Shown: positions 3,262-62,140 of the stretch, one piece after another
Layout of the letters: every line of letters begins with the position of its first letter
Numbering within the stretch: position 1 is the first letter of the stretch
Virus record (IMG/VR): IMGVR_UViG_3300045004_000088
Location: 64,001-128,000 of that record
Source: a virus
Length of the DNA: 64,000 nt
Reading direction: 5' to 3' (one strand)
Made by a program: the position numbers and the translations under genes
Notes under the pieces: model-generated
The model's input: the letters and a program-made list of their open reading frames with translations, nothing else
What the model was told of the DNA's origin: nothing
Database searches by the model: none

Positions 3262-4239
3262 ATGAAGATCAAGAGAAAGACACCTTCAAAAGCGCCGGCG
3301 TGGGGTCTTAGAGATTACTACGAGCGACGTGATAGGGTGCTGGTCGTTCGCGACGTTGGTGGCCTCGGCGACATCCTGATGCAAAGGATGATGTTCGAGA
3401 GCTTCAAACGTGTGATGCCCGAATGTCACATCACCTGGGCCGTCCCCCAACAATACTTGGAAGCCGCCGCGAGACATCCATTTGTTGACGAAGTGGTTGA
3501 CTGCCGCACCGTCAACAAAGCCGACTTCACCCTCGTCTACAACATCACCTTCGCGTGCGGCCGGTACGAGAACGCCATCGCACCCAGAGCCGACAAGCAC
3601 CGCAGCGACATCTGGGCCAACCACTGTGGCGTGGTAATTGGCAAGCACGAAATGTATCTCGGCGTAACGGCCGAAGAGAAGAAAGCCGCCCGTCAACTTC
3701 TGCAACGCAGCGTATCGAGTCCGAACGCTCCGATCTTGGCAATGTGTCCCGCGTCGGCTCAGATCGGCAAGGACATGTCGCCGGCACTACAGACGGAAGT
3801 CGTCACGCGAGTTTGGCAGAAGGGGTGCAACGTCGTTTGTCTGCACAACAAGTCCATGCCACACCTCGATCAGATCGGGTGCCGAACCTTGAGCGGCTTG
3901 AACACGCGACAGTGGATAACGGCACTGGACGCGGCCGACTACGTCTTGAGCGTTGACACGTCGGCGTTCCACTGCGCGGGCGGGCTGAAGAAACCGCTGG
4001 TGGGAATTTTTACCTACTGCGACGGAAAAGTGTACGGAAAGTATTTCGACTTCGTACTCGTTCAAAAGCACAGGGACGACAGCAACTGGGATTGCGGCCC
4101 GTGCTTCAACTGGTCGATGTGCAAAAAAGAGTGCAAGAAAACGATCAAGCCGTGTGCGAGCGAGATCACGTCCGACATGGTGATGGACGGTATAGAAAAA
4201 ATGATGGCGAAGTGGCCGTACAAGCCACAAATCGAATGA
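3262..4239 (+). CDS. glycosyltransferase family 9-like (ADP-heptose:LPS heptosyltransferase fold)
   Basis: N-terminal VLVVRDVGGLGDILMQ...ITWAV matches the GT9 (K/R)ILIV..S.GD.L...P...L signature. C-terminal SVDTSAFHCAGGLKKPLVGIF resembles GT9 GNDSGPMHLAAALGKPLV. Confidence 0.5.
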   Translation: MKIKRKTPSKAPAWGLRDYYERRDRVLVVRDVGGLGDILMQRMMFESFKRVMPECHITWAVPQQYLEAAARHPFVDEVVDCRTVNKADFTLVYNITFACGRYENAIAPRADKHRSDIWANHCGVVIGKHEMYLGVTAEEKKAARQLLQRSVSSPNAPILAMCPASAQIGKDMSPALQTEVVTRVWQKGCNVVCLHNKSMPHLDQIGCRTLSGLNTRQWITALDAADYVLSVDTSAFHCAGGLKKPLVGIFTYCDGKVYGKYFDFVLVQKHRDDSNWDCGPCFNWSMCKKECKKTIKPCASEITSDMVMDGIEKMMAKWPYKPQIE

Positions 4240-24779: not shown

Positions 24780-25859
24780 ATGGGCAAACACAACATCCTC
24801 GTAATTGACGACCGAGTCCCCGATCCGCACTTCGGGGCCGGCTTTCCGCGTGCCTACAGACTCCTGATGAGCCTGTACAAGCTCGGCCACAAAATCTGGT
24901 TCTATCCCAACATCAAGTCCAGCATCAAGGAGTTGAACGTTGAGAAGCTCAGAGAGTTCAACATCGAAGTCGTTTCCGACATCGAAACGGTGCCGGAAAC
25001 GATAGACCTGATCATCGTCTCCCGTCCCCACAATGCCCACTATTACCTCCCGCCGGCGCAGAAGCGACTGCCGCACGCCAAAACCATCTATGATACAGAA
25101 GCCCTGTGGTACAGACGGTACGACTTGCAACTGGCGTTCACGGGTCGTCTGCCGGGGTGGGCGTACCGTTACGACGAAATCGGCATGGCCCAAAAAGTTG
25201 ACCTGTGTTGGGTGGTCAACGACGAAGAGAAACAGATCCTCGAATCACACCAAGTCAAGAAGGTAGTCAAGCTCGCCCACGCTCTGGACCGCCACTGGGC
25301 CGGCGAGGACTTCAACTACCGCAAAGATTACTTGGTGGTCGGCGGGATCTTGGAGAACGATTCGTCCAACGAGGATGCCCTGTGGAACTACCTGAGCAAC
25401 GCATGGGAACTCGTCCGAGAACCCGGCATCAAAATGAACGTCACCGGCCAAGCGAGCGCGGACAGGCTGAACAATGAAGATTTCAAGAAACGGTTCTTCG
25501 ATGTGAACCTGATGGGACACGTTCCGAACCTGACCCCGCTCTACGAATCACACCGCGTGTTCGTCGCGGCGACACGATTCGCAACCGGCATCCCGTGGAA
25601 GGTACACGAGGCGATGGCAAACGGCATCCCGTGCGTGATCTCTCGACTGTTGGCGGATCAACTGAAGCTGGTGCCGGATCGGGACGCGATGGTTTGCGAC
25701 AACCGGGACGATTACTTCGAGAAGAGTCGCGAGCTTTACCACAACCGCAAGATCTGGCAGGACACGAGGCATCACGGGTACGAACTGATCAAGCGGGACT
25801 GCGACCCGCACAAGTTCATGAACGTGATTCAGGAATCAATTGATTCACTTTACGCCTGA
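24780..25859 (+). CDS. glycosyltransferase family 4 (GT-B, group 1)
   Basis: C-terminal RVFVAATRFATGIPWKVHEAMANGIPCVIS matches the GT4 E(G)FG..LLEAMA.G.PVI motif. Confidence 0.6.
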   Translation: MGKHNILVIDDRVPDPHFGAGFPRAYRLLMSLYKLGHKIWFYPNIKSSIKELNVEKLREFNIEVVSDIETVPETIDLIIVSRPHNAHYYLPPAQKRLPHAKTIYDTEALWYRRYDLQLAFTGRLPGWAYRYDEIGMAQKVDLCWVVNDEEKQILESHQVKKVVKLAHALDRHWAGEDFNYRKDYLVVGGILENDSSNEDALWNYLSNAWELVREPGIKMNVTGQASADRLNNEDFKKRFFDVNLMGHVPNLTPLYESHRVFVAATRFATGIPWKVHEAMANGIPCVISRLLADQLKLVPDRDAMVCDNRDDYFEKSRELYHNRKIWQDTRHHGYELIKRDCDPHKFMNVIQESIDSLYA

Positions 25860-26841
25860 CGACTTCTAGCAACTCGCGGTTGTTAGAAACGAACGAAGCG
25901 AAGCCGGCGGATTGCGTGCCGGCTTCGCTTTCTATTTGGTCGAACGCGGAATCAAAATCAACATCAATGTATTCGCCGCCATCGGAGAAACATTCGGTCA
26001 AAACTCCGTGACCGGCCGCTTCGACAAGCTTCCTGACCTTTCGAGTGAACCCGACGCTCATGATCGGCGTGTTGGCCGACATCGCGAAAACGTGCGAATG
26101 GAAACGCTGACAGACGGCGGCGTCCGAATCCGCGAGCAAGTCCACGACCTCTTGTGGTGAGAGCAAGTCGTTCACGCAGACCAAATCGTTGTTGACGTAA
26201 GACCTCAAGGACAAATGAACACGTCGGTCGTCGGCGTGGGCATCCCCCGAACACGGCACGCAAACCACTTGATAGCCGCGTTTCTGGAGGCTGGTGCAAA
26301 AGCGACCAAAGCTTTCCAAGAACTTCTGGCTCCGACGCCAGAACGTATCGTCTGACCGCACTCTGGATGGCATCATGTAATCCGTCAAGAAGACCGCCAC
26401 CACCGGCTTGTCTTTTGGTGCGTAACGAGACAGAACGTCTTCCCCACTGGGTTTGATAGCGAAAGCCAAATCAGGTGTGTACTCGACAACGCAGTTTGTT
26501 TTGTTGCGAACCAGATCGACATCTCTTTGGTTCCGTAAGAACCAAGCAGAGAATCCGGCTTGGGCGGCGAGATCGCTTTCCGACTCGTAGCCCAAGCCGA
26601 CGCCGAGGGCAATCTTGACGGGCGAGGCCGAGGCCGTGATGGTGGGTAGGTAGTAGGGGGTGACGACATCGCCGCCGCCTAGAACGATCACGTCCGGTGT
26701 GGGCGGCGGCGATTTGCGGTAAAGATCAATGTTGAAGAACCGCACTTCGTGTGCCTTGAAGAAGTTTGCGATGGCGGGACGAAAGGCTTCGTCCCCCACG
26801 TTCTTCATGTCGTAATACCCGACGACGTGTATCTGCATCAC
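25816..26841 (-). CDS. polysaccharide pyruvyl transferase family protein (CsaB/WcaK-like)
   Basis: N-terminal IHVVGYYDMKNVGDEAFRPAI matches the family signature GYYG..N.GDEAIL. Confidence 0.5.
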   Translation of the reverse strand: MMQIHVVGYYDMKNVGDEAFRPAIANFFKAHEVRFFNIDLYRKSPPPTPDVIVLGGGDVVTPYYLPTITASASPVKIALGVGLGYESESDLAAQAGFSAWFLRNQRDVDLVRNKTNCVVEYTPDLAFAIKPSGEDVLSRYAPKDKPVVAVFLTDYMMPSRVRSDDTFWRRSQKFLESFGRFCTSLQKRGYQVVCVPCSGDAHADDRRVHLSLRSYVNNDLVCVNDLLSPQEVVDLLADSDAAVCQRFHSHVFAMSANTPIMSVGFTRKVRKLVEAAGHGVLTECFSDGGEYIDVDFDSAFDQIESEAGTQSAGFASFVSNNRELLEVVRRKVNQLIPESRS

Positions 26842-29990: not shown

Positions 29991-30007
29991 CCCACTACAG
30001 GAGACTA

Positions 30008-34444: not shown

Positions 34445-34491
34445 AATCATCTGTGCTGGATAGATACCCACAAACACCTCAGTGGGGAACC

Positions 34492-35360: not shown

Positions 35361-35387
35361 TCAAGCCTATATAAAACAGGAGGATGG

Positions 35388-36549: not shown

Positions 36550-36746
36550 AAGAAAGCACTTTGAAAACGCACTTCAAGGAAAAGAAAACCCTTGAACGAA
36601 TGATCGAAAGGTTCGGGAAAGCGGAAACAGCCAAGCGGTTGGCTTGGCTGCATGATTGCGATGAACGAAAGGTTGGGTCGTTAGTAAAGCAATTCTTGGC
36701 CGGGGATCAGCCGAAAAGCGGTTTCCAGCCGGCGGGCCAGCGGTAA
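36546..36746 (+). CDS. hypothetical small protein
   Basis: MKESTLKTHFKEKK..., about 66 aa. The end overlaps the convergent GT2 gene. Confidence 0.25.
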   Translation: MKESTLKTHFKEKKTLERMIERFGKAETAKRLAWLHDCDERKVGSLVKQFLAGDQPKSGFQPAGQR

Positions 36747-37414
36747 ATCTTCGCCGCCTTCTTGAGAGCGTCCATGTCGATCCGCTTCTTACCCATAACG
36801 CGGATTCGTTCGACGTGGTGATCTCGGTCCCAAGTGTTACTGCCGTGGAACGTGCGGCAGTAACACGTCCCGCCCTCCACAATGTGCAGCATGTTCTGCA
36901 ACTTCAATTCCTTCTTCAACACCGTGTCCTCACCCTTTGACGCGGGCGGGTAGAACTTGCCGGCGCGACGATCAAGGAACAACGTCCCCTCGATCCCGTT
37001 CGGGTCCGCGACCCACGCCACTTCGTTCGTATCGCAGAAATAGTGCAGTTGTTCCTTCAGGACGACGGCCGGGTATTCGCCGTCGTGATGGCCCTTGTAC
37101 TGCTCACTGATCCGCGTCGGCCCGTACCAGTCGTCATCGTCCCACTGGATCGTCAAGTCGCTCGGTGAATACTCCAGAGCGAGATTCCGAAGTTCTCCGA
37201 GTTTCCGTTTCCGGGCCGAGTGAAGCACGGAAACTTCACGGTCGTCACCCATGAGTTTCTTCAAAGCCTCATGCTCTTTGACATCCCCGTCGTTGACGAT
37301 GAGCAAATGCTTATTGGGGTAGTCCTGCTTCTTGAAGTATTTGTAGCTCTGCTTGACCAGCGGAATCCTTCCCGTGGTCACCATCAGAGCGGTGATCATC
37401 GGGTAGTGCTTCAT
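36707..37414 (-). CDS. glycosyltransferase family 2
   Basis: N-terminal MITALMVTTGRIPLVKQSYKYFKKQDYPNKHLLIVNDGD is a typical GT2 start (I(T/S)..M.T.NR...L......Q.Y...EL.IVDDGS). Confidence 0.6.
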   Translation of the reverse strand: MKHYPMITALMVTTGRIPLVKQSYKYFKKQDYPNKHLLIVNDGDVKEHEALKKLMGDDREVSVLHSARKRKLGELRNLALEYSPSDLTIQWDDDDWYGPTRISEQYKGHHDGEYPAVVLKEQLHYFCDTNEVAWVADPNGIEGTLFLDRRAGKFYPPASKGEDTVLKKELKLQNMLHIVEGGTCYCRTFHGSNTWDRDHHVERIRVMGKKRIDMDALKKAAKIYRWPAGWKPLFG

Positions 37415-41614: not shown

Positions 41615-41703
41615 TTTGGTCGCTTTCTGACGTGTCCCTTAATGAGTATACGCCTAGCAAGAAGAAGAATTTCTGGTATCATACGGTGAAGGGGGAATTT
41701 TCC

Positions 41704-52761: not shown

Positions 52762-53070
52762 ATGCAACCTAAACCAGCTATTACCTTCCGCGCGAACACA
52801 GAAACGTTGGACCGCCAGGGGCATCTCGTCCCGAACCGGACGACGCTTTCTGGCGGCGAGACGATCTCGGAAGCCGACGAACAGAAGTTCAACAGGACCG
52901 TTGCTTTCGTTCCGGGTGTGAACGCCGGCATGAACGTGACCGGATACCACCACGGCGAAGAGTTCACGCTCTACGGCAACAACGCCCTGTACTTCAAGAA
53001 CCTACACTGCCCCGGTAACGCCGACGACCTGTTTGTGGTCGTATCGACGGACTGGGACGATCACGGCTAA
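52762..53070 (+). CDS. hypothetical protein
   Basis: 102 aa. GGAGG precedes the ATG. Confidence 0.35.
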   Translation: MQPKPAITFRANTETLDRQGHLVPNRTTLSGGETISEADEQKFNRTVAFVPGVNAGMNVTGYHHGEEFTLYGNNALYFKNLHCPGNADDLFVVVSTDWDDHG

Positions 53071-53079
53071 GGAACCCAA

Positions 53080-53400
53080 ATGGTGTCGTTCCAGAAACTG
53101 ATGGAACACATGGATGGGTTCCGCAAAGAACAAAACGATAAGAACGCCAAGAAATCGGCCGAGGCCATCAGAACGGGCATCAACATCCGTGATGACTTCT
53201 GGGACGATTTCTTGGCGTTGCTTAACAACTCGTCGGCGTTGGCCGAGCTTCTGAAAGTCCCCTCCACAAAGATCTCGGCTTGGCGGGCGAGAGTTCAGAA
53301 GTACCTCGACCAAGTTCGAGAAGAGGACGAAACCCCCGATCCGAAGAAGCGTTCGACCATGATTCGCGCCGAGAAAGATCCTTTCGATTTCGACTGGTAA
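53080..53400 (+). CDS. hypothetical protein
   Basis: 106 aa. Confidence 0.35.
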   Translation: MVSFQKLMEHMDGFRKEQNDKNAKKSAEAIRTGINIRDDFWDDFLALLNNSSALAELLKVPSTKISAWRARVQKYLDQVREEDETPDPKKRSTMIRAEKDPFDFDW

Positions 53401-53411
53401 CAAGGAGAGCA

Positions 53412-53726
53412 ATGGGCAAGTTCACTGAATGGGTCAACGAGATCAAGTCACAGGATCTCAAAGAGTTCTCGGCACTCGACCTCGCACGCGCGAAGTCTGA
53501 CAGAGCTTTTGGCGGCGTGGCCGACAGCAAGTTCAAGACGACCGGCGGGCTGACTCAGATCGTTTACGGCGACCTGAAGAACATCTTGGAACGTCGCGGG
53601 AGCGAAGACCCATCGGGCGACAAGAACGCCATCTTCAAGGCGATCAAAGAAGCCTACAGGATGCTGGTGAACGAACACAGGAAGGCTGCGACCGCGCAAC
53701 CCAGTGCCTCAACACCCGGAACCTAA
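53412..53726 (+). CDS. hypothetical protein
   Basis: ATG at 53412 after AAGGAGAG. MGKFTEWVNEIK... Confidence 0.35.
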   Translation: MGKFTEWVNEIKSQDLKEFSALDLARAKSDRAFGGVADSKFKTTGGLTQIVYGDLKNILERRGSEDPSGDKNAIFKAIKEAYRMLVNEHRKAATAQPSASTPGT

Positions 53727-54748
53727 TGAGCCGAGTAGTTCAAAACAAAGCGTCACGTCAAGAACTACAAGAGAAAATCAAACGGGCTATGGAGAAAAAG
53801 CCGAGTTCAAACGGCTTGTGGTCCCGTTCGTTTCCTCCTGTGGCCGCGAACGCGACGGCACGAAACAACCTGCGAGGAGTGGTGAAGTCTACAAAGAAGA
53901 ACGCTCCAGTTCGTCCGGTCCCGTCACGCCCGATCAAAGAGGGCAAGCCCGCGAGGGCAACGTTTTTGACCGGGGAGGCTTTCCTCCTCGAACAAAAAGT
54001 ACGCCGCCGCAGTATGTCGCCATTCGTGGCAAGAGAGAGGTTCCCCGCCGGCCACCACGGAACATTCAAGCACTCTGGCGACCTGGGCGACCTCTGGTAC
54101 AGCCTGCCGATCATGAGGTACATGGGGTCGGGCGACATCTATTTGGTCGAAGACGGTCTGAAGTCAACGAAGGCAGACGGGACGCCGAGCGGCCTGAGCC
54201 GCAAACTGATCGACATGGCGAAACCGTTGCTCGAAGCCCAACCCTATATCGGCAAGTGCGAACTGTGGGGCAAGCAAGAGGTTGAAGTTGACATGGACAT
54301 CTTCCGCCGCATCAACCTGTACGGCGACATCAACCTCTGCGAACTCATCCTGCAAAATTCGGGTGTGCCGTTCCGCGAGAGCGATACGCCGTGGTTGACT
54401 TGCAACAAGAACCGGGTCGCGGCTAGAGTTTTCGCACGGTCCCCGCGATACCACAACCCGAACATCAAGTGGGCCGAGATCTATAACGCCTACAAGACGG
54501 ACGCGGTGTTCGTTGGTTTGCCATACGAACACCAACTGTTCGAGGCCAAAGTCGGGCCGATCCCGTACCGGCCGGTCAAAGACTTCTTGGAAATGGCCGA
54601 AATCATCAACGGTGCGGACCTCTTCATCGGCAATCAGTCAAGCCCGATGGCTATTGCCATCGGCCTCGGCAAGAACTTCATTCAAGAAGTCTGCCTGAAC
54701 TGCCCCAACTGCATGTTCGACCGGCCGAACGCGAAATACTTGACATGA
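53726..54748 (+). CDS. glycosyltransferase family 9-like (second heptosyltransferase-fold gene)
   Basis: HSGDLGDLWYSLPIM is the GT9 GD(L/V)L motif. C-terminal ADLFIGNQSSPMAIAIGLGKNFIQ matches GT9 LVIGNDSGPMHLAAALGKPLV. An alternative ATG lies at 54014. Confidence 0.5.
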   Translation: MSRVVQNKASRQELQEKIKRAMEKKPSSNGLWSRSFPPVAANATARNNLRGVVKSTKKNAPVRPVPSRPIKEGKPARATFLTGEAFLLEQKVRRRSMSPFVARERFPAGHHGTFKHSGDLGDLWYSLPIMRYMGSGDIYLVEDGLKSTKADGTPSGLSRKLIDMAKPLLEAQPYIGKCELWGKQEVEVDMDIFRRINLYGDINLCELILQNSGVPFRESDTPWLTCNKNRVAARVFARSPRYHNPNIKWAEIYNAYKTDAVFVGLPYEHQLFEAKVGPIPYRPVKDFLEMAEIINGADLFIGNQSSPMAIAIGLGKNFIQEVCLNCPNCMFDRPNAKYLT

Positions 54749-54755
54749 ACCGTCT

Positions 54756-55433
54756 TTAACCGCGTTGAATGTCGGCGAGGTGATCCTCGGTTCGACGCTT
54801 CTGGAACGTAGCGACACCGTGATCGGTCTTGAACGTCAGACCACGCAAGTCGCCGTTCTTGAACAACTGTTTCATCTGAGCAGGTACGCCGCCGTACCAC
54901 GGGTGTTCGAGACACCAGAGGTCGTGGATGCAGATGATCCCGCCCGGCGTCACTCGCGGGAACAGGGTCAACAGTTCGTTGTACCGCTCTTTCAGTTCCG
55001 TGTCGAGCCAGAGGAAATCGTAAGTCAAATCCGGGTGCATGCCCGCAAAGAACTCGGTGGTAGTGGTAGTCACAACCGTCGCGAACGAACTCAGACCCAT
55101 CGCCGCCAGTTTGTCTTTGGCGCGACTGGCGACCGTTCCGTCTTTCTCAATGGTCGTAAGGTGGCCGAAACCGTTGTCGCGGAGGGCCAGTGCCATGTAC
55201 TGAGCCGAGACGCCGATGTTGGTGCCGGTTTCCAGAATCGAAACCGGCTTAACCATCCTGACCAAACCGTAAAGGAACTCGCCCTCTTCGATGGCGATCC
55301 CGGTAGGGTCTTGCATGTCTTGGAAGTCGGAGTGTGACAGCATGCTGTCGCGGCTGACGGGTCCGTACTTTTCCTTGTGAGAAAGGATCTTCTTGTGCGG
55401 ATCGAGTTCTAGCAACTTGTCGGTGGCGTTCAT
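54756..55433 (-). CDS. class I SAM-dependent (O-)methyltransferase, family-3 OMT-like
   Basis: VSILETGTNIGVSAQYMALAL is the LE.GT..G.S SAM-binding motif. GGIICIHD is motif post-II. Confidence 0.6.
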   Translation of the reverse strand: MNATDKLLELDPHKKILSHKEKYGPVSRDSMLSHSDFQDMQDPTGIAIEEGEFLYGLVRMVKPVSILETGTNIGVSAQYMALALRDNGFGHLTTIEKDGTVASRAKDKLAAMGLSSFATVVTTTTTEFFAGMHPDLTYDFLWLDTELKERYNELLTLFPRVTPGGIICIHDLWCLEHPWYGGVPAQMKQLFKNGDLRGLTFKTDHGVATFQKRRTEDHLADIQRG

Positions 55434-56119
55434 TGTATCCCTTTGTTGACAAAAGCGAACAACCGAAGTGGTTCTTGGTGTTGGTAGCAGAATTCGGCCG
55501 ACACGTCCTCAAAGCCCTCGAACTCTTTCCTGAAATCATCGAACGTGCGTTCGTCCCGCTGATGGAATTCGCCGACTATGTACTTGGTCTTCGCCAAAGT
55601 TCGCTTGGCTTTCGCCAAAAACCATTCGCCACCTTCACAGTCGGTTTTCAAAAGGTGGATTCTCTCGTAGCCGCTCATCAAGTTGTCCAAATCAACGCGG
55701 GCCACAGCAACCTCGGAGCAATTCTCCAGAGGGCGAGGTTCTGCAACGAAACGGCGTCTGAAGCCCCAGTCGTCGTTGCGTGAGAACCAGAAGATCTTGT
55801 TGCACCCCAACGCTCCTTCGATCACCGTGATCGCGTTGCCGGCGTTGTTCAAAGCGATGTTGTGTCGCAGGATCTCGATGTTCTCTGGGAGCGGTTCGAT
55901 GGCGACACAGACCATGCCCAACTGTGCTGCGAGCAAAGAGGCGTGGCCCGCGTAAGCGCCAACGTCCAAGAAGACTTCGCCGGCTTTGGCGAGCCGGCGA
56001 ATGTTGTACTCGTCCGAATCGATGGCGTCACGGCCGATGATCGCGGTCGCGATGTTGGTGTCGGTGCTGTTGGGTCGAACGGCCGACAGCACACCTTTGA
56101 AATTGATGACTTCGTTCAA
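55430..56119 (-). CDS. FkbM-family methyltransferase
   Basis: VFLDVGAYAGHASL matches DVGAN.G..S. LLKTDCEGGEW matches the FkbM KIDVEGAE block. Confidence 0.6.
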   Translation of the reverse strand: MNEVINFKGVLSAVRPNSTDTNIATAIIGRDAIDSDEYNIRRLAKAGEVFLDVGAYAGHASLLAAQLGMVCVAIEPLPENIEILRHNIALNNAGNAITVIEGALGCNKIFWFSRNDDWGFRRRFVAEPRPLENCSEVAVARVDLDNLMSGYERIHLLKTDCEGGEWFLAKAKRTLAKTKYIVGEFHQRDERTFDDFRKEFEGFEDVSAEFCYQHQEPLRLFAFVNKGIQ

Positions 56120-57162
56120 CGCAACTCCTCAAGGAATCTTCTGACGCGAGCGGCTTCGTAGTCCCAGTTGAACAGCCCCTTAGCCGTTTCCCAACAGGCA
56201 TACGACATCTCGTTGGCGCGGTGGATGTTGTCGGTAATGATCCTGATCGTCTCGACCAGAGAAGCCAAATTCCAATCCGCCTCCAAGCATGTGCGGAACG
56301 GCATCAGGTACTGCCGGGCTGTCCGGTACTGGAAGAACCGACGTGGGATGATCGGAATGCGACCGAGGGCCACGCTCTGCAAGAGCGAGTGTCCGTAACC
56401 TTCGTAGGTCTTGAAGTAGTAGCCGCAAGAACTCGATTGGTAAGCGGCTGGCATGTCTTTTTCGGCCAACATGCCGTAAGTATTGTTGATGCCGTAGTCC
56501 TTGAAGGTACATTCGGGCATCGCCGTTTTCAAATCGTTCCACAGGCCGAACACACTGATGTTGTTCGTCGGCGCAACGTTGCCGCTCTCGCAGTGTGGGC
56601 AAACGTCCCCCCAACACCAGCAATCCTTGTCCCAGTGCCAACCGTTGAAGGAGGCGAGACAGTTCGTAAAGGTGGCGACCGTCTTCAGGTCTTCGGCTTT
56701 GATCGGGACGAATTCTTTCTGATGGTACTGGTAGCCGAGTTCCTGCGAATAGAAGATCTTGTGGGCCGAGGACCGCATGTAAGAACCGTAGTCCGACGAC
56801 ATGAAGTTCTTCACGAACGACCAGTCGTAGATGGACTTCTCGTTGCCGGCCTGGGCGATGATCTTGATGTTCTTCTTGGGGTGCGACTTGAGCAGGTTCT
56901 GGAACAGTGGCAGGCTCTCGCACCGCGTGATCAGAACCGCGTCCCAGTCCGTAGCCAAGAACTGATCCCGGTTGATGGCGTAAGGGAAGTGCTGGATGTA
57001 CTGGTCGGGTACGCCCTGGAGGTTTTTGTAGTGGTCGGTTGTTACCGGGAGCCACACCCCGATCATGCCCTGAGCCGTCACCCAGTTGACGAAATCGGGA
57101 TTCGGGAAATACAGTTCGTGTCCGAGTCGCTCGTGGAACAGCAGGAACAGACTGCGTCCCAA
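56116..57162 (-). CDS. putative GT-B-fold glycosyltransferase
   Basis: C-terminal TYEGYGHSLLQSVALGRIPIIP resembles the GT-B E(G)FG..LLEAMA.G.PVI motif. The product is Trp/Cys-rich and otherwise unrecognised. Confidence 0.35.
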   Translation of the reverse strand: MGRSLFLLFHERLGHELYFPNPDFVNWVTAQGMIGVWLPVTTDHYKNLQGVPDQYIQHFPYAINRDQFLATDWDAVLITRCESLPLFQNLLKSHPKKNIKIIAQAGNEKSIYDWSFVKNFMSSDYGSYMRSSAHKIFYSQELGYQYHQKEFVPIKAEDLKTVATFTNCLASFNGWHWDKDCWCWGDVCPHCESGNVAPTNNISVFGLWNDLKTAMPECTFKDYGINNTYGMLAEKDMPAAYQSSSCGYYFKTYEGYGHSLLQSVALGRIPIIPRRFFQYRTARQYLMPFRTCLEADWNLASLVETIRIITDNIHRANEMSYACWETAKGLFNWDYEAARVRRFLEELR

Positions 57163-57197
57163 CCCGCCATGATGATGATCTGAAAATATCTTAATGA

Positions 57198-58010
57198 CTA
57201 CTCCTTGAAACCACCGTGTGGTTTTGCCAATGCCGCTTCCAAAGACATGCCCGAATTAAGTCTCTTTGAAAGAGTGTGATAGTTTATGTTGTATTCTTTG
57301 GCGATCCTCTTCCTGTCGATCTTTTGCAAAGCGGCAATCAAATCGCCGTCAAACTCTTTCTGAAGTTGCTTGTATGAAACTCCTAGCTTCCTAGCCAAAG
57401 ACTTCAAAGTGAATGGAACACCTTCCCACTTTACGATTACATATTTCGACTTGACATTAGCGGCTTCGGCTACAGACAAACCGTTTCTAAGTTTCTGCCT
57501 GAATGTGGTCTAGTTGACGCCGAAATGGTCTGCCCAATCCTTCGCAGACTTCGACTGACCCTCGTGTTCAAACAACTTAGCTGGATTATGCGGAATGGCT
57601 CCCTGTTTCAATCGAGCCGTCCTCAGTTTTTGTCGCGTTGCCACCGAGTGTGTGAGTCGTCCATCGGCCGGGACCATGACGTTGTATCCTTTGTCGGGGT
57701 CACAGCTTTTCGCCACGTCGATGTGGAAAGTTTCTCTTGCAATTAGATTGTCGGCGGGACAGTTTTCCAACACGCTCATCACGAACACATCGCTGCCGTA
57801 CTTGTTCCAAGCATTTTGGAGGTGCGGGTTATGGTGAGTGCCAAGACGCAAATGACGACGGTGACGATACCATCGAGTCTTGATGTTGACTGCACTGCCG
57901 ACGTAAACTTTGCCGTTAACGCCATTCTCGATTTTGTAAACACCGGACTTGAGGTGGTCGCTGAAGATCTTCAAGCTCACCTCATTATTCTGTTGATGAA
58001 TTCGACCCAC
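57198..58010 (-). pseudogene. GIY-YIG homing endonuclease interrupted by an in-frame TAG
   Basis: The N-terminal ORF (58010..57510) has SGVYKIENGVNGKVYVGSAVNIKTRWYRHRRH, a GIY-YIG core. A TAG at 57510..57512 is followed in the same frame by 10 open codons and a 93-aa ORF with repeated NUMOD1-like helix motifs. The readthrough gives GVN*TTFRQKLRNGLSVAEAA, which mirrors the later GINYHTLSKRLNSGMSLEAAL, so the stop sits where a Tyr is expected. Confidence 0.6.
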
Positions 58011-58897
58011 TCAGGACCGACTTTCTTCACGTCGAACCGTTCTCGGTTTTTCAACGAGTTCTGGTGGGCGATCTCACGAAGGTTCTTGTCAGCCAGTATC
58101 CGGCGGGCGTTGCTGATCATGGCGGGAACTTCGCGGTCCAGATAGAGTGCCATGTTCTCTTCTTCTAGACCGTGGCCGTTGTTGTAACAGACGGTCGGAC
58201 AGCCGGCACACCACGCCTCGATTTGCGACATGATCAGGGCTGCCGGAACGGTGCCGAAAGAGACGAAGCAGGCACTGTCACGGAACCGTTCTCGCATCTG
58301 CGGTTCGGGGATCTCGCCCATCCCGCCGACCTCGTCCGTTTCCTTGCCGGAAAGCATGACGGGTACTTCCTTCTTGAACTGCTTCATCAACTCCCAACCG
58401 CAGCCGTGGCCGCGTTTGTGGATGCTGTTGCAGGTGGCGTAGCAAACGGGGTACTTGCCGGTCCACGGCTCGAAGTCCTCGAAATACTTGCCGAAGTACA
58501 AGAGCTTTTGCTTGTGTTCGGGACAGCCGGCCTCACGATGACGACGGTGGTCCTTGACCGAGTACGGAGCGATGTATGCGTGCGGGTAATCACGCGCCAT
58601 CGCCGAAACAGCCTCGTACTGCCAAGTGTCGGCCTGTCCGAAACTTACGAGGACCACCCGTTTGCCCTTGTCGAGCAAATCTTTCATCACCGCCGCGTAG
58701 TTCGGCACTTGGTGAAGGACGATCAATTGGAAGTCATTGATGTTCGAGTTGGCATCGGTGACGCCGGGTATTTTTGGTCGCTGTTTCGATCCGATGTCCC
58801 AGTCGCCGCCGACCGAATAGCCGAGGTCTTTGAACATTCGGGCGTGGTCGTATTCCAGCGAAGCATGGCAAGATTGCACAAAAAGACGATGACTCAT
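57977..58897 (-). CDS. putative glycosyltransferase (GT-B-like C-terminus)
   Basis: ATG at 58897 after AGGAGG. C-terminal FGTVPAALIMSQIEAWCAGCPTVCYN weakly resembles the GT-B EAMA.G.PV motif. Confidence 0.3.
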   Translation of the reverse strand: MSHRLFVQSCHASLEYDHARMFKDLGYSVGGDWDIGSKQRPKIPGVTDANSNINDFQLIVLHQVPNYAAVMKDLLDKGKRVVLVSFGQADTWQYEAVSAMARDYPHAYIAPYSVKDHRRHREAGCPEHKQKLLYFGKYFEDFEPWTGKYPVCYATCNSIHKRGHGCGWELMKQFKKEVPVMLSGKETDEVGGMGEIPEPQMRERFRDSACFVSFGTVPAALIMSQIEAWCAGCPTVCYNNGHGLEEENMALYLDREVPAMISNARRILADKNLREIAHQNSLKNRERFDVKKVGPEWVEFINRIMR

Positions 58898-58949
58898 GGC
58901 ACCTCCTACTCCTAGTATAGTTAGGCTCGCTATTACAAAACGGAGACAC

Positions 58950-60152
58950 ATGGCCAAAATTGATCTATCCAAAGAATTCTGCTACCTGCCCAACTTCGTT
59001 CGCGAAGACATCCTGATGGCCCAAACTGTCGGCCAGCAGTTCGGGTGGCAGATCCAGAACTTCGACCTCCCTTCAGCTTGGAAGGACACATGCGGCACTG
59101 GCGTCAACGTCGCCGTCCTCGACACCGGGGTCGATTTGACGCACCCGGACCTAATCGAGAACCTGATCGAAGGTTACAACGTCATCAACCCCAAGCTGCC
59201 GCCGACCGATGATAACGGTCACGGTACGCACGTCGCCGGCATCATCGCGGCGTCGAACAACGCAATCGGCGTCGTGGGCGTTTCGCCGTGCGCAAAGATC
59301 ATCCCCATCAAGGTTCTGAACCGGATGGGTGCGGGCAGGATGGATCACGTCATCGAAGGCATCAAAGTCGCTGTTGACAAGGGTGCCGATCTGATCTGCA
59401 TGTCTCTCGGCACCCGCAACCCTCTGGACGAGGTATTGAAGGCGATCAAGAAAGCGGCCGACAGCGGGGTCGTGTGTTTCGTGGCCGCAGGCAACGCCGG
59501 CCGCACGGCACAGCTACTGTATCCCGCCGCGTATGACATGACCATTAGCATCGGTGCCGTGGACGAGAACTCGATGCGAGCGTCGTTCAGTTGCACCGGC
59601 CCCAATCTCGACTTCGTCGCGCCGGGCGTGGACATCTACAGCACCGTGCCTGTTTCGAGCTACGCGGTGATGTCGGGTACTTCTCAGGCCGCTCCGTTTG
59701 CGTGTGGTGTCGGCGCGTTGCTGTTGTCGCACCACCGAATGACCAAGCCGGGGGCCAAGTTCAAGAAAGAAGACTACGTCAAGGCACTGAGCAACAACGC
59801 ACTGACCGTCGAAAACCTCGACGTGAAGTACGCGGAACTGGGTAAGAGATTCTTTCAAGGCTTCGGGATCATCAACCCGGTCAACTTCTTGGACTGGGTC
59901 GAGAACAAGAAAGTCGATTCGGTGGCGCAGACCATCGCCGGTGCTTTGAGCGACGTGGGCATGCTCGATACCACGAAAGCCGACGTGTCGGCTTTGCGTA
60001 AGTTGTCTACGGATTTGAACAAGGCTCTGAAGCAGTTCCCGAAGGTGAATCAGAAGGCGGCGTCGAAGAAGGCGGCGGTTCAGAAAGAGATGATTTCATC
60101 TGCTTTACTACGTCGCGTATCAAAGCAGCCCGCTCATAATCCTCAGCCTTGA
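58950..60152 (+). CDS. subtilisin-like serine protease (S8 family)
   Basis: GTGVNVAVLDTGVD carries the catalytic Asp. HGTHVAGIIAA carries His. MSGTSQAAPFACG carries Ser in the GTSMAxP block. ATG at 58950 after GGAGAC. Confidence 0.75.
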   Translation: MAKIDLSKEFCYLPNFVREDILMAQTVGQQFGWQIQNFDLPSAWKDTCGTGVNVAVLDTGVDLTHPDLIENLIEGYNVINPKLPPTDDNGHGTHVAGIIAASNNAIGVVGVSPCAKIIPIKVLNRMGAGRMDHVIEGIKVAVDKGADLICMSLGTRNPLDEVLKAIKKAADSGVVCFVAAGNAGRTAQLLYPAAYDMTISIGAVDENSMRASFSCTGPNLDFVAPGVDIYSTVPVSSYAVMSGTSQAAPFACGVGALLLSHHRMTKPGAKFKKEDYVKALSNNALTVENLDVKYAELGKRFFQGFGIINPVNFLDWVENKKVDSVAQTIAGALSDVGMLDTTKADVSALRKLSTDLNKALKQFPKVNQKAASKKAAVQKEMISSALLRRVSKQPAHNPQP

Positions 60153-60672
60153 TGCAGTCTTTCATCCGACCTTCAAGGTACTTGATGCGTTCAGGCAGCG
60201 GCACGCCACCGTGCCGCTTGACCGTCGCGAGCGTGCGATCAACGGTAGACTCTTTGGGTTCGCCACGGTCCTTGCGTTTCTTCCACGCTTTCGGCACCTT
60301 GCCGTTGTGAATCATGTCGCCGTGGTGGTTCATCAACATCGTCTCGATGTCGTCGCGGAAGGCATCGTAGCAGGCCGGGCAGCCGAACTGATTGGCCTTT
60401 TCGATTTCGAGCGGGTTGATGCCACAGACGGGGCATTTGTGCGAGGCGGCTACGGCTTTGGCCGCTGCCGCCTTTTGCATCATTTCTTGAAACTGATTCA
60501 AGGAGTTATTCAGCACGGGAAGCGATTTGGCCGAGGTGGAGGGAGCGGCCCCCTGACCGAGAGCGCACTGGGGACAACACTGAATCGTCTTGGTGCCTTG
60601 CGGAGTGATCTCCGCAAGGGTGAGATTCTTGGGATTGGAACAGGGTTGGCCGGTGCGGGGGCAAACGCTCAT
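60007..60672 (-). CDS. zinc-ribbon protein with C-terminal UVR domain (McsA-like architecture)
   Basis: It has several CxxC pairs (CPRTGQPC, CCPQC, CPVCG...CPAC). C-terminal ERIKYLEGRMKDCIKAEDYERAALIRDVVKQMK matches the UvrB/UvrC UVR motif. Confidence 0.45.
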   Translation of the reverse strand: MSVCPRTGQPCSNPKNLTLAEITPQGTKTIQCCPQCALGQGAAPSTSAKSLPVLNNSLNQFQEMMQKAAAAKAVAASHKCPVCGINPLEIEKANQFGCPACYDAFRDDIETMLMNHHGDMIHNGKVPKAWKKRKDRGEPKESTVDRTLATVKRHGGVPLPERIKYLEGRMKDCIKAEDYERAALIRDVVKQMKSSLSEPPPSSTPPSDSPSGTASEPCSNP

Positions 60673-60674
60673 GA

Positions 60675-61322
60675 TTACTTCTTCTTGCGTTCGATCAGTT
60701 TGTTTTCGTCGTTGTAATCCCTGATCTTCTTCAACAGTTCCGCGATCTCGTCCTTCGTCAACTTTTCCGCGTTGTCCTTCGTGAACTTCTCGGCGTAGTT
60801 TTCGAGGATCTTGGCGGTTTCCTTGCGAAGATCAGTGAGTTTTTCGACGTAGCCCTTCAACTCGTCCAGAGTCGGCGCGTTCTCGTGGGTGGGCGGCTTC
60901 AGGGCATACTTCTTCAACTCATCTTGCCAGAAACCGTTGAGTCTTGTCAACTCGAATGTGAGCCGTTGCAGGTTGGAAAGGTAGAAAGACTGACGGTCGA
61001 ATTCGGGCAAGTCTTTTACCTTCAGTTCCTTTTTATCGCTGACCCGCGTCAGGGTGACGTTTTTCCAGTATTCGGGGTCGTTGAACTTTTTGCTCCACTC
61101 GGTGTAACGCTTCAGTGCGTGTTCGTAATCTGACTTGACCGGCAGATCTTCTTCCAGCTTGGGAACGGCCTGCACTTTCTTGTTTTCCACTTTCGTCGGG
61201 GGCGGCACCTGACCCGCGAAGGACGTGCCGATCAAAGTCGCAAATACCAACATCGATGCAAAGAGTTTCATTTGAATTTCCTCGTTGTGGAACCGGACAG
61301 GGTCATTATAGTCCGTTTTCAC
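60675..61322 (-). CDS. secreted protein with signal peptide
   Basis: MKLFASMLVFATLIGTSFAGQ followed by a K/E-rich helical body. Confidence 0.4.
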   Translation of the reverse strand: MKTDYNDPVRFHNEEIQMKLFASMLVFATLIGTSFAGQVPPPTKVENKKVQAVPKLEEDLPVKSDYEHALKRYTEWSKKFNDPEYWKNVTLTRVSDKKELKVKDLPEFDRQSFYLSNLQRLTFELTRLNGFWQDELKKYALKPPTHENAPTLDELKGYVEKLTDLRKETAKILENYAEKFTKDNAEKLTKDEIAELLKKIRDYNDENKLIERKKK

Positions 61323-62140
61323 GGAAACGCTGTACCGCTGACCAGAACCGCGCCCCCGTCAGAGGCAAGAGCCGAAGAACCGGCCGCAGTCGTCCTTCTT
61401 ACCCAAACGGGATACCCCTCTGTCGGTCCTAAATGCCCAATGGAAAGCGGATTTTCCATTGATGGCGTGTAGAAGCTGACGCCGGTTGGGGTTGTGGTCG
61501 GTGCGTCGATGAGCGGCGCGATCCCGTTAATCGGACTGCCGGGTACGATTTTGGATGTTGTCACGGTTGACGCGGGAGTCAAACCGTTTGAAGTCACCGT
61601 CAGCGTCGGATGAAACCGTTTGCCAGAAGTTCCGGCGAAAATGACGGTAAACACCACGGTCGTGGACGGGCCGATGCCCGTCTGGGCCGTAACCGTAACG
61701 TCTTCGAGGCCATCGACGGTACGAATGGCCGTTTGGAAATTCGCTGCCCAAACGCCGAGGTCGGAGTTGTAAGAAAACGTAAAGTCTTCGTCGCCGTGGC
61801 CCAACGTCAAGCTGCCGGTTGTCGGGTCACCGACCACGGTAACGGTTTGTATTTCGTCAACGAACGCGAAGCCCAGTGCCATGTCGGACCCGCCGGCAAC
61901 TTCGTCGGTTATGGCGACCGTCGAGTTCCACAGCGTTTCGGTGTTGCTGTTGTTGAAGACGTAGAAGCACATGTAATCAACGAGTCCGTCTTCCTGCTCG
62001 TCGGCCGTGACGTTCTCGAACAGATTGTTTATCCCGTTCGGAACGGGATAAGAGGACGGATCGCCGCCGAGTGAGGCGAATTGGTTTTGGTTTGACGCTC
62101 CCCCGGAGAGGACGTGTACGATGTCGCCGTCTTGAATCAT
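61319..62140 (-). CDS. hypothetical T/S/G-rich protein, possibly structural (Ig-like)
   Basis: 273 aa with β-rich, low-charge composition. Confidence 0.35.
   Translation of the reverse strand: MIQDGDIVHVLSGGASNQNQFASLGGDPSSYPVPNGINNLFENVTADEQEDGLVDYMCFYVFNNSNTETLWNSTVAITDEVAGGSDMALGFAFVDEIQTVTVVGDPTTGSLTLGHGDEDFTFSYNSDLGVWAANFQTAIRTVDGLEDVTVTAQTGIGPSTTVVFTVIFAGTSGKRFHPTLTVTSNGLTPASTVTTSKIVPGSPINGIAPLIDAPTTTPTGVSFYTPSMENPLSIGHLGPTEGYPVWVRRTTAAGSSALASDGGAVLVSGTAFP

Follow-up and report, generated by a model that had tools for sequence, protein, structure and literature searches.

A minus-strand block of candidate glycosyltransferase and methyltransferase genes, interrupted by a homing endonuclease and faced by a convergent GT9-like gene, raises the question of what a phage might glycosylate and methylate with enzymes of its own. 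The block lies in the 64-kb stretch of DNA analyzed here (the window), out of a genome of about 476 kb, and the phage carries a T4-like head module with Pfam matches to Gp23, Gp20 and Gp21. The locus is an example of an already known sort of phage glycan-decoration cluster. With moderate confidence, we lean towards a long-resident cassette that assembles a short glycan and O-methylates it within the host cytoplasm during infection, with virion proteins as our leading guess for the acceptor.

Gene organization of the locus

Open reading frames were re-read from the window, and all six genes of the original prediction were recovered at approximately the same positions. Since full-length homologues are conserved on independent metagenomic contigs, these frames are real genes and not chance occurrences. 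The locus comprises the following features:

57977..58897, minus strand: P7, soluble GT4-like GT-B glycosyltransferase (306 aa) by predicted fold; opens the minus-strand block
57198..57980, minus strand: pseudogene of an I-TevI-like GIY-YIG homing endonuclease (HEG); catalytic domain, in-frame TAG, then helix-turn-helix repeats
57954..57980, minus strand: native P4 start and codons 1-9, now the HEG 5' end, as judged from the sequence and from relatives
57510..57512, minus strand: in-frame TAG within the HEG frame, by comparison with related contig L001
56116..57195, minus strand: P4, divergent GT4-like GT-B glycosyltransferase (359 aa) by predicted fold, with an invariant CPHC-containing Cys insertion
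55430..56119, minus strand: FkbM-family SAM methyltransferase, 229 aa (PF05050, TIGR01444)
54756..55433, minus strand: Methyltransf_24/family-3 (cation-dependent type) SAM O-methyltransferase, 225 aa (PF13578, PF01596)
53726..54748, plus strand: P1, basic N-terminal extension plus mini GT9-like core (54038-54748), weak GT9 signal

Overlaps of 4 nt occur between P7 and the HEG (GTGA), P4 and FkbM (TTGA), and FkbM and the O-methyltransferase (ATGA), that is, at three of the four minus-strand junctions rather than at each of them as first described; the HEG and P4 are separated by a 2-nt gap. P1 converges on the minus-strand methyltransferase genes across a 7-nt gap. The P7 start at 58897 agrees with homologue lengths of 304-307 aa and lies 5 nt downstream of a GGAGG. 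The second glycosyltransferase gene exists as predicted, but its start falls at ATT 57195 instead of TTG 57162: the 359-aa product matches its homologues in length (359-362 aa), the conserved P4 N-terminus IKIFSDHHHGG is encoded from this ATT, and an AAGGAG Shine-Dalgarno sequence (57201-57206) is located 5 nt upstream.

The homing endonuclease insert

The HEG matches the GIY-YIG family (PF01541, E = 1.2e-10, 57510-58010) and a PHROG homing endonuclease profile (6.5e-25), and its catalytic domain aligns with that of I-TevI (1mk0, E = 4.5e-16), HEG residue 10 falling on I-TevI Met1. It constitutes one frame, 57198-57980, which most likely starts at GTG 57980 and not at 58010, with a single internal stop, TAG at 57510-57512. 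The stop site reads HFGVN*TTFRQKL in the window versus HFGINYTTFRQNL in L001, a Tyr codon having changed to TAG; L001 has a remnant of 215 aa at this insertion point, 56% identical to the HEG over 180 aa. Its portrayal as a decaying invader is borne out by this stop, by a low GC3 (0.571, with GC 0.481, against a GC3 of 0.71-0.77 in its neighbours) and by the truncated or remnant copies in relatives, where the same insert is found at later stages of decay or is absent.

The GTG at 57980 overlaps the P7 stop codon (GTGA), and the segment that it opens, 57954..57980 (GTG AGC TTG AAG ATC TTC AGC GAC CAC), encodes VSLKIFSDH in frame with the HEG. In the HEG-free relatives L010 and L002, P4 begins at this same GTGA overlap, and homologues P0004 and P0009 begin with MSLKIFxD. 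On our reading, the HEG landed at the overlapping P7/P4 junction, took over the native initiation region of P4 (codons 1-9) and has since begun to decay; P4 survives through a replacement 5' end combining a strong ribosome-binding site with a weak ATT start codon. The HEG is a selfish insert with no part in the glycan pathway. It resembles I-TevI and the free-standing GIY-YIG HEGs of T-even phages in the succession of catalytic domain and helix-turn-helix DNA-binding repeats, in its low-GC foreign composition, and in its presence, degeneration or absence at one site among relatives. It departs from them in not being intron-borne, in sharing a reading frame with the first nine codons of the gene that it entered, and in using the GTGA-coupled start of that gene, which is rescued by a duplicate 5' end with synonymous recoding.

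Glycosyltransferases and the P1 family

Neither P7 nor P4 has a Pfam match above threshold. Both are GT-B proteins by predicted fold, in agreement with the original prediction, and their best structural neighbours include PglA, PglH/WlaC, PimA, WaaB and WbnH. On our reading of the alignments, both depart from the canonical GT4 EX7E signature, with E...Q in P4, where the Q is invariant, and A...E in P7, which counts against the reading favoured below.

P1 consists of a very basic N-terminal extension (residues 1-105, calculated pI 11.9) followed by a core of about 230 aa. The GT9-like label is overstated. The GT9 signal is weak: P1 matches TIGR02201 at E = 0.0038 across 33 residues, and 14 of 48 family members match PF01075 at E<=0.1 (best 1.1e-5). 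The core belongs to a separate family of about 790 members, whose profile found no solved GT9 structure and gave no significant alignment to the window's own GT9. As far as sequence comparison indicates, this is a large, almost unannotated and apparently viral family with a weak link to GT9. In several of its proteins the core is joined to a methyltransferase domain of the TylF/Methyltransf_24, FkbM or class-I type. The P1 homologue is full-length in L001 (67% identity) and reduced to the core within the L002 operon (39%).

Conservation of the cassette

Comparison with related phages had been proposed to establish whether the locus is a cassette, and it proved to be common to related phage contigs and to distant ones from large phages. 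The P7-P4-Methyltransf_24 module recurs in L001, L002, L003-5, L006, L009 and L010 at 33-81% identity (P4, 43-78%), usually accompanied by a gene for an NAD-dependent sugar epimerase/dehydratase and by one for a P1 core. In some copies, genes for UDP-glucose dehydrogenase, sulfotransferase, cytidylyltransferase or GT9 are also present, all of them well-known partners in glycan pathways. Phage multidomain proteins named "Methyltransferase FkbM" also contain a P7-like GT-B domain. A tblastn search of the five proteins against 50,697 phage records returned no match except one marginal O-methyltransferase (E about 4e-4, two Enterococcus phage records). The glyco genes have GC and GC3 values of 0.55-0.565 and 0.71-0.77, close to those of the capsid gene (0.563 and 0.713), a match that suggests a long-resident accessory of a huge T4-like phage lineage.

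Methyltransferases and their substrates

The FkbM and family-3 O-methyltransferase labels agree with profile matches above cut-offs, to FkbM PF05050 (2.1e-14) and TIGR01444 (7.6e-22) for the former and to Methyltransf_24 PF13578 (6.9e-14) and Methyltransf_3 PF01596 (4.6e-7) for the latter. The "TylF/CmcI-type" designation did not hold, with no match to PF05711 or PF04989 and Methyltransf_24/family-3 as best family. Both proteins fall in small-molecule/sugar-type SAM O-methyltransferase families rather than grouping with nucleic-acid methyltransferases.

We infer sugars as the methyl acceptors from context only, because enzymes of the Methyltransf_24/family-3 and FkbM families act on substrates other than sugars as well. 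Known substrates of these families include macrolides, catechols and CoA esters. The methyltransferases might instead act on a protein, a small metabolite or a nucleic acid, or the block might make a glycosylated, methylated small molecule. The nearest solved relatives of the Methyltransf_24 protein are family-3 O-methyltransferases (2gpy, 5.5e-7), its PDB neighbours being mostly of the catechol/caffeoyl-CoA type, and FkbM shows a weak likeness, at cut-off, to Trm5/Taw2 tRNA methyltransferases (PF02475, 1.9e-6). The presence and position of FkbM also differ between close relatives: in the window it is interposed between P4 and the Methyltransf_24 gene; among close syntenic relatives it occurs only in L001, at another position and 47% identical; and a Pfam Methyltransf_21 gene in the clusters of L003 and L008, which are more distant, does not match the window FkbM. 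Against these alternatives, a Methyltransf_24 orthologue follows P4 at every examined locus, with a 4-nt overlap in L001, L002 and L006 and a spacing of 3-30 nt in L003, L009 and L010. Methyltransferase domains are, moreover, repeatedly fused to P1-core or GT-B domains, and the partner genes are sugar-nucleotide enzymes, with polyketide, NRPS and other scaffold-building genes absent. We give these alternatives only a slight chance.

Other glycan genes in the window

Pfam agrees with the original prediction on four further glycan genes, all possibly related to the cassette:

3262..4239, plus strand: bona fide GT9 heptosyltransferase-family gene (PF01075 2.5e-8, above cut-off; TIGR02193 7e-11)
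24780-25859, plus strand: GT4-type glycosyltransferase (Glyco_trans_1_4 6.5e-13)
25816-26841, minus strand: polysaccharide pyruvyl transferase (PS_pyruv_trans 3.4e-16, CsaB 8.7e-14)
36707..37414, minus strand: GT2 (GT-A) glycosyltransferase (PF00535 5.8e-12)

The claim of a complete decoration pathway was not supported: the window holds no nucleotide-sugar enzyme, and its copy of the cassette lacks the epimerase/dehydratase present in all relatives examined except L006, the most distant. Given this absence and the non-canonical ATT start of P4, the pathway could be altered or weakened in this phage.

The four further glycan genes bear on a second possibility, remodelling of the host envelope. 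The substrates would then be host glycans, either lipid-linked or already assembled (LPS core or O-antigen, capsule, or a pyruvylated secondary cell-wall polymer). With priming and export left to the host, the enzymes would alter the cell surface during infection, for instance so as to block superinfection or to prevent progeny from adsorbing to lysed cells. The window GT9, CsaB/WcaK-like pyruvyl transferase and WcaA-like GT2 are typical envelope-polysaccharide enzymes, the best structural neighbours of P7 and P4 include enzymes that use undecaprenyl-PP-linked or lipid acceptors, and comparable GT/epimerase/O-methyltransferase clusters, found in T4-like jumbo cyanophages of the P-SSM2 type, have been read as LPS or capsule modification that pre-empts other phages (PMC7824862, Iyer et al. 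2021). Those clusters likewise accompany a T4-like head module, combine several GT families with O-methyltransferases and NAD-dependent epimerase/dehydratases, occur sporadically, are polymorphic from one relative to another, and have predicted roles; the window cassette, by comparison, is much smaller, is devoid of sugar-nucleotide enzymes, and includes GT families (P4, P7 and the P1 core) that escape Pfam. However, we know of no phage cluster of this cyanophage type for which experiments have demonstrated host-envelope modification. The 59 candidate genes of the window include no multi-pass membrane protein and none for a flippase, polymerase, ligase or priming phosphoglycosyltransferase, and no membrane segment is predicted in any of the five cassette proteins. 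Host-envelope remodelling is possible but rather unlikely.

Proposed mechanism and acceptor

In the favoured reading, a cytoplasmic cassette decorating a short glycan, P7 and then P4 would transfer sugars from nucleotide-sugar donors to the acceptor, the translationally coupled Methyltransf_24/family-3 O-methyltransferase and, in this phage, the extra FkbM would methylate hydroxyls of the added sugars, and the convergent P1 might add or prime a further sugar; we infer the order P7, P4, methylation. As a guess guided by analogy, acceptors are ranked with virion proteins first, host envelope glycans second and DNA last.

The virion target is suggested by two systems. In cluster-O mycobacteriophages, the capsid and tail tube are the targets of an O-methyltransferase and tandem GTs (PMC11600133, citing Freeman 2023). 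Cluster O/F phages (Corndog, Che8 type), in which the O-methyltransferase gene precedes the tandem GT genes, resemble the window in tightly linking soluble GTs to an O-methyltransferase, without export machinery, in a lytic genome. Their acceptors are capsid and tail-tube proteins, whereas the acceptor of the window cassette is a putative one. Its proteins have no detectable sequence relationship to those operons, gene order and number differ, and FkbM and the mini-GT9 are additional. In the chlorovirus PBCV-1, A064R (two rhamnosyltransferase domains and a methyltransferase domain) and A061L, a second methyltransferase, cap the N-glycan on the major capsid protein with di-O-methylated rhamnose (PMC9614988). 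This virus-encoded, cytoplasmic set of two sugar-transfer activities and two SAM methyltransferases offers, by analogy only, a concrete model in which sugars are transferred one after another and then O-methylated in a set order. PBCV-1, however, is a eukaryotic giant virus whose A064R carries the domains fused in one protein, domain 1 being of GT-A-type fold, while the window GT-B enzymes are separate proteins and lack sequence similarity to A064R.

Alternatively, P7 and P4 might in succession glycosylate a hydroxymethylated base in the phage DNA, with the methyltransferases acting on the DNA-bound sugar and the P1 extension binding DNA. Phage DNA-glycan pathways, such as those with T4 alpha/beta-GT or with GTs linked to 5mYOX or ThyS, employ GT-B folds and sequential GTs or GT+epimerase pairs, the latter seen in cassette relatives, and their GT-B enzymes, too, resemble MshA and PglH (bioRxiv 10.1101/2023.12.21.572611). 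The basic P1 extension would fit nucleic-acid binding no less well than a role directed at proteins, and in close relatives the syntenic neighbours include genes for a Dam methylase, a COOH-NH2 ligase and a Prim-Pol. Base-hydroxymethylating partners, on the other hand, were seen at none of the inspected loci, which for this phage covered 64 of about 476 kb: no C5-cytosine methyltransferase, 5mYOX/TET-JBP or thymidylate-synthase-like hydroxymethylase was found in the scanned window genes or the L001-L010 flanks. P4 and P7 have near-neutral calculated pI (6.7 and 7.6), T4 GTs are not their nearest structural neighbours, and we know of no O-methylated, sulfated or pyruvylated DNA glycans, nor of methyl, sulfate or pyruvyl decorating enzymes in phage DNA glycan pathways. 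DNA hypermodification accordingly has little more than a slight chance.

Two side observations concern genomic setting. The lack of multi-pass membrane proteins among the 59 window genes was counted for a cytoplasmic, non-exported acceptor. The GT4/pyruvyl-transferase pair (24780..26841) directly follows the portal gene, and in L002 and L006 the cassette adjoins the large terminase; this adjacency to packaging or head genes at three loci may be a coincidence in mosaic genomes, and was counted weakly for a virion target.

Genomic setting of the locus

The window derives from a T4-like tailed phage, as indicated by Pfam matches to genes of the head module.

Head-module genes matched by Pfam
18330-20255, large terminase
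22184-24742 (+), T4-type portal protein with an intein (Intein_splicing, 6.5e-10)
29987-30685, prohead protease
31636-33108, Gp23 major capsid protein

P0001 and P0059, JGI proteins that are both encoded on a 475,914-bp contig, are 100% identical to proteins of the window. The nearest sequenced relative is LR756511.1, an uncultured phage of 595 kb, with 78% identity in the capsid protein. The source is therefore a huge phage. The GC content of the window is approximately 55%. Glycosylation genes that the original prediction had placed elsewhere in the window were confirmed by family searches, and the GT4-type and pyruvyl transferase genes form a pair directly after the portal gene, within the head-morphogenesis region (24780-26841).

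Glycosylation genes outside the locus
3262-4239, GT9 (2.5e-8)
24780-25859, GT4-type glycosyltransferase (6.5e-13; best NCBIfam model, PEP-CTERM/XrtA-system glycosyltransferase, 1e-13)
25816-26841, polysaccharide pyruvyl transferase, CsaB/WcaK-like (3.4e-16)
36707-37414, GT2 (5.8e-12)

All of the open reading frames originally proposed for the locus itself were also present in the ORF listing.

Genes of the locus
53726-54748 (+), P1, GT9-like, with a conserved core at 54038-54748
54756-55433 (-), O-methyltransferase (OMT; Methyltransf_24, 6.9e-14; O-methyltransferase family 3, 4.6e-7)
55430-56119 (-), FkbM methyltransferase (PF05050, 2.1e-14; TIGR01444, 7.6e-22)
56116-57195 (-), P4, predicted GT-B glycosyltransferase
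57198-57980 (-), GIY-YIG homing endonuclease (HEG) insert
57977-58897 (-), P7, predicted GT-B glycosyltransferase
58896-60152 (+), S8 subtilase

Scans of 53000-60500 for promoters, terminators and repeats returned no signal exceeding shuffled expectation. The annotated 418-aa S8 ORF overlaps the divergent start of P7 by 2 nt, and its N-terminus is probably shorter than annotated, judging from the 371-384 aa of its relatives. Besides the prohead protease, this subtilase is one of three unrelated proteases in the window, together with a papain-like C1 protease at 34354-35259(+) and a trypsin-like protease at 49975-50847(-). The window also encodes, at 4511-5581(+), a 356-aa actin-fold protein with a full-length match to the Pfam Volactin model (5.7e-69, 233 bits versus a cut-off of 35). 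Volactin has been described as a haloarchaeal actin, and this huge-phage actin homologue may, like the phage tubulins, form part of a cytoskeleton.

A P7-P4-Methyltransf_24 core is conserved across viral contigs

A blastn search of 53000-60200 against 50,697 phage records gave zero matches, and in the same records tblastn returned no match for P4 and, for concatenated P1, OMT, FkbM and P7, just a marginal O-methyltransferase match in two Enterococcus phage records. The cassette is therefore missing even from the nearest sequenced relative, LR756511.1. The gene contexts of homologues on viral contigs (L001-L006, L009 and L010) share a P7-P4-Methyltransf_24 arrangement, which makes the locus a cassette.

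Gene order in homologous loci
L010 and L009 (close, syntenic): S8 and P7-P4-Methyltransf_24; on the opposite strand, epimerase/dehydratase, P1, small ORFs and Dam; without FkbM
L001 (Logan 72.5-kb contig): as L010 and L009, plus FkbM after the OMT, a LAGLIDADG gene and a 215-aa HEG remnant between P7 and P4
L002 (49 kb, about 50% identity): P7-P4-Methyltransf_24-epimerase-P1 core in one operon, just downstream of the large terminase
L003-L005 (165-kb freshwater contig): P7-P4-Methyltransf_24 converging on an operon with two P1-core paralogues, a class-I methyltransferase, UDP-glucose dehydrogenase, FkbM, epimerase and sulfotransferase
L006 (more distant): GT9, cytidylyltransferase, P7-like, P4 and Methyltransf_24, adjoining the terminase

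A 586,525-bp contig is also recorded as carrying the P4, P7 and P1 proteins of L001. L006 belongs to GCA_038893975.1, binned as a Candidatus Methanomethylicaceae archaeon; since the same contig encodes a large terminase, it is probably viral rather than archaeal chromosomal sequence, and may represent an archaeal virus or a mis-binned phage.

The invariant core of these loci consists of P7, P4 and the Methyltransf_24 gene, with the epimerase and the P1 core as frequent partners. FkbM is variable: the window copy lies between P4 and the OMT and shares only 47% identity with the L001 copy, versus 74-81% for the flanking genes. This variability agrees with that of flagellin glycosylation islands, where FkbM genes are likewise variable add-ons (PMC4875605). 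The epimerase of the relatives was not found in the window by tblastn, so that the "complete" methylated and pyruvylated glycan pathway originally envisaged is an overstatement. The third-position GC (GC3) of the glycosylation genes (0.71-0.77) equals that of the capsid gene (0.713), which argues for long residence in the phage genome.

P7 and P4 are predicted GT4-type glycosyltransferases

Homologues of P7 form 36 clusters, every one of them metagenomic, and their length of 304-307 aa places the P7 start at 58897; an alternative 331-aa ORF with a hydrophobic leader (start 58972) was ruled out by the same lengths. P4 homologues form 22 clusters without any Pfam domain, and the TTG start at 57162 that had been listed for P4 was ruled out by homologue N-termini and by the sequence upstream. 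AlphaFold models built on the homologue alignments (P7, pLDDT 93.9 and pTM 0.90; P4, pLDDT 86.3 and pTM 0.84) both present the two Rossmann-like domains and inter-domain cleft of a GT-B fold. Neither P7 nor P4 itself scores above the curated threshold of PF00534, PF13692 or PF13524: P7 gives just a sub-threshold Glyco_trans_1_4 match (E=0.019, 15.7 bits versus a cut-off of 27), and P4 as originally listed (56116-57162) has no Pfam or PHROG family. GT1 Pfam models are passed, however, by members of both families, namely two distant P7 relatives (P0055 and P0056, PF00534) and one member of the P4 family (P0187). The link of P7 and P4 to the GT4 Pfam families is thus transitive, since it is their relatives, and not the window proteins, that pass.

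Among viral predicted structures, the matches of P7 are group-1 glycosyltransferases from uncultured tailed phages, giant viruses and archaeal viruses. Two of them are multidomain phage proteins that bear the name "Methyltransferase FkbM", and the T4 enzymes do not appear among the best 50. An exhaustive profile search for the P4 family collected 476 representatives at E<=1e-3, of which 45 reached E<=1e-30. As only one of ten sampled members (P0187) passes the Pfam GT1 models, the family is a divergent GT4-like group mostly missed by Pfam. P4 carries five invariant cysteines, among them those of a CPHC motif within an insertion of lower pLDDT. The EX7E region, placed by eye in the alignment rather than by superposition, appears non-canonical in both proteins, reading E-x7-Q with an invariant Q262 in P4 and A-x7-E with an invariant E227 in P7. 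Taken as modeled, P7 and P4 are two GT-B enzymes of GT4 type, for which nucleotide-sugar transfer is predicted.

P1 is a mini GT9-like protein

P1 has a full-length homologue in L001 (67% identity), which includes the N-terminal 105 residues, a strongly basic extension (pI 11.9, net charge +17.5). Residues ~105-340 define a large family: the protein search gave about 790 hits, and most members are unannotated proteins of 227-262 aa. The original assignment of P1 to GT9 goes further than the profiles allow. P1 has no Pfam or PHROG family, and its match to TIGR02201 (E=0.0038) amounts to 16 bits across 33 residues, versus a cut-off of 170. PF01075 was detected at E<=0.1 in 14 of 48 P1-core family members (best 1.1e-5), the family profile found no solved GT9 chain, and an hhalign comparison of the P1 core with the window's own GT9 was insignificant, though the same C-terminal motif was aligned. 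The conserved core spans just ~230 aa, short of the two-domain GT-B architecture of about 320-350 aa of the WaaC/WaaF type. Because the link to GT9 is weak, P1 is designated here a mini GT9-like protein rather than a member of GT9.

On two other viral contigs (L008, 4474-5196(-); L003, 5392-6009(+)), P1-core genes lie beside a GT_PLOD-type (collagen-lysine glycosyltransferase-like) gene and beside sulfotransferases. Such neighbours hint at protein-directed and at sulfated glycans in relatives.

Two O-methyltransferases and a proposed order of reactions

Both SAM methyltransferases are assigned by profile searches to O-methyltransferase families. The OMT matches PF13578 (53 bits versus 26.3) and PF01596 (29.8 bits versus 22), and its nearest PDB neighbours are family-3 O-methyltransferases. 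FkbM matches PF05050 (54.4 bits versus 22.7) and TIGR01444 over the whole domain (78.3 versus 37.7 bits, positions 1-143 of 143). The OMT had also been likened to TylF/CmcI enzymes, a label that is too specific: neither TylF (PF05711) nor CmcI (PF04989) is listed by Pfam for it at E<=0.1, and its C-terminus yields weak matches of ~30 residues to MycE- and TylF-type chains (E 0.0065-0.015).

The glycosyltransferase and methyltransferase genes are translationally coupled and co-conserved with sugar-nucleotide enzymes. Methyltransferase domains are also recurrently fused to predicted P1-core or GT-B domains; for the P1 core, the fusion partner is TylF/Methyltransf_24 in P0087, P0090, P0091 and P0109, FkbM in P0145 and a class-I methyltransferase in P0160. 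As blastp found no direct homology between the window methyltransferases and those fused to the P1 core, this argument is valid at the superfamily level only. Sugars would be transferred sequentially by P7 and P4 and then O-methylated, an order and a choice of sugar acceptors that we infer. PBCV-1 A064R/A061L offers a worked precedent, in which two sugar transferases and two methyltransferases modify, in a fixed order, the rhamnose that terminates the capsid glycan (PMC9614988). The locus is real and well conserved, and it belongs among phage glycan-decoration clusters, built of families that current annotation does not recognise.

Candidate acceptors

Decoration of virion proteins is a credible reading, although it falls somewhat short of being probable. 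The 64 kb contain no membrane machinery, glycosyltransferase genes adjoin terminase or portal genes in three loci, and cluster-O mycobacteriophages provide an experimental precedent (Freeman et al. 2023, as cited in PMC11600133 and PMC12619734). Purely as speculation, possible acceptors are a 273-aa protein rich in Thr, Ser and Gly that is encoded near the locus (61319-62140(-)) and a Thr-rich insertion at capsid residues ~140-250 (31636-33108). Modification of host-envelope glycans is unlikely but deserves consideration, given that the nearest structures to P7 and P4 act on lipid-linked acceptors, that GT9, CsaB/WcaK-like and WcaA-like genes are also found in the window, and that Iyer et al. 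read comparable jumbo cyanophage clusters in this way (PMC7824862).

DNA is a very improbable acceptor. Phage DNA hypermodification does use the GT-B fold, sequential glycosyltransferases and glycosyltransferase-plus-epimerase pairs (bioRxiv 10.1101/2023.12.21.572611), and P1 has its basic extension; however, P4 and P7 are near neutral and a base-hydroxymethylating enzyme is encoded in none of the loci examined. No dCMP/dUMP hydroxymethylase, and no C5-methyltransferase plus 5mYOX, was identified by Pfam in about 59 window genes or in the Pfam annotation of L001-L010. The window also encodes a class-III aminotransferase (47033-48334(+), 1.9e-80), a phiEco32-like COOH-NH2 ligase (62196-63110(+)), a Prim-Pol (63089-63790(-)) and a circularly permuted YpsA SLOG protein (41632-42231(+)). 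Links to systems that modify nucleotides or DNA bases have been described for some of these families, and through such links these genes bear on the DNA reading.

Returning to virion proteins, P7, P4, Methyltransf_24 and the mini GT9-like protein might together constitute a widespread, essentially unannotated phage-specific system by which huge phages and other large environmental phages coat their virions with O-methylated glycans, with the P1-core family as a new minimal glycosyltransferase family priming protein acceptors; we regard this broader proposal as tentative and rather doubtful. The glycans may be sulfated in relatives and pyruvylated here. If true, bacterial viruses would possess a counterpart to the capsid glycans of chloroviruses and mimiviruses. 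Glycan decoration encoded by phages affects host range, immune recognition and superinfection, and to our knowledge has scarcely been studied experimentally beyond mycobacteriophages and T-even DNA glucosylation. The module is compact and conserved, with two GT4-like enzymes invisible to Pfam, a coupled O-methyltransferase and a mini-GT9-like protein; it recurs among huge phages and on further large viral contigs, and three protein families gain a structural or functional label missing from current annotation.

A decaying homing endonuclease separates P7 from P4

The GIY-YIG ORF at 57510-58010 (-) matches Pfam (1.2e-10) and a PHROG homing endonuclease family (6.5e-25). The two GIY-YIG ORFs of the insert are one frame with a single internal TAG at 57510-57512, a position occupied by Tyr in the L001 homologue (56% identity over 180 aa). 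The frame encodes an I-TevI-like catalytic domain (E=4.5e-16), with frame residue 10 aligned to I-TevI Met1, as well as helix-turn-helix repeats, but the in-frame stop leaves it interrupted. The HEG is a pseudogene unless the TAG is suppressed. General TAG recoding (code 15) was rejected, as long ORFs (553-852 aa) run without interruption under the standard code and the L001 codon is Tyr. TAG is unusually rare as a stop in 58 candidate genes (TGA 41, TAA 15, TAG 2), yet one lies in frame inside the HEG; no tRNA genes were found in the window, and a suppressor tRNA may reside elsewhere in the ~476-kb genome.

The nine HEG residues that precede the I-TevI-like domain are the native P4 N-terminus, VSLKIFSDH (compare MSLKIFSDSHHGG in P0004). 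The GTG at which they begin and the P7 stop overlap (GTGA, 57977-57980), and in the HEG-free L010 and L002 P4 starts at just such a GTGA overlap. After the HEG stop (TAG, 57198-57200), the sequence AAGGAG-tagtc-ATT AAG ATA TTT TCA GAT CAT CAT CAT GGC GGG encodes IKIFSDHHHGG, the conserved P4 N-terminus, with ATT as the apparent start codon. This ATT (57193-57195) follows a perfect AAGGAG with a 5-nt spacer, and the L001, L009 and L010 orthologues have GTG or ATG at that codon. The duplicated KIFSDH codons differ at 7 of 18 positions, all synonymous. The locus hence illustrates how a gene whose start overlaps its neighbour can survive invasion through duplication and recoding of its 5' end.

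The relatives form a decay series that bears out the original view of a decaying endonuclease: the window copy is full length with one stop, L001 has lost the N-terminal catalytic motifs, L009 retains 26 codons of the C-terminus within a spacer of 89 nt, and L010 and L002 retain nothing. One lineage thus displays the whole HEG cycle of invasion, degeneration and loss. The insert has no pathway role, except that P4 is left with a weak start codon.

The insert (GC 0.481, GC3 0.571) resembles in composition the three LAGLIDADG genes and one T5orf172/MerR-HTH gene of the window (853-1710(-), 41000-41614(-), 45007-45564(-) and 35343-36131(+)), whose GC3 is 0.52-0.55 versus about 0.72, except for the copy at 45007. 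With the GIY-YIG gene and the portal intein, this is an unusually high load of selfish endonucleases for 64 kb. In L009, the S8 protease gene (3556-5937(-)) carries an intein with a LAGLIDADG endonuclease, an intein that the S8 gene of the window lacks.
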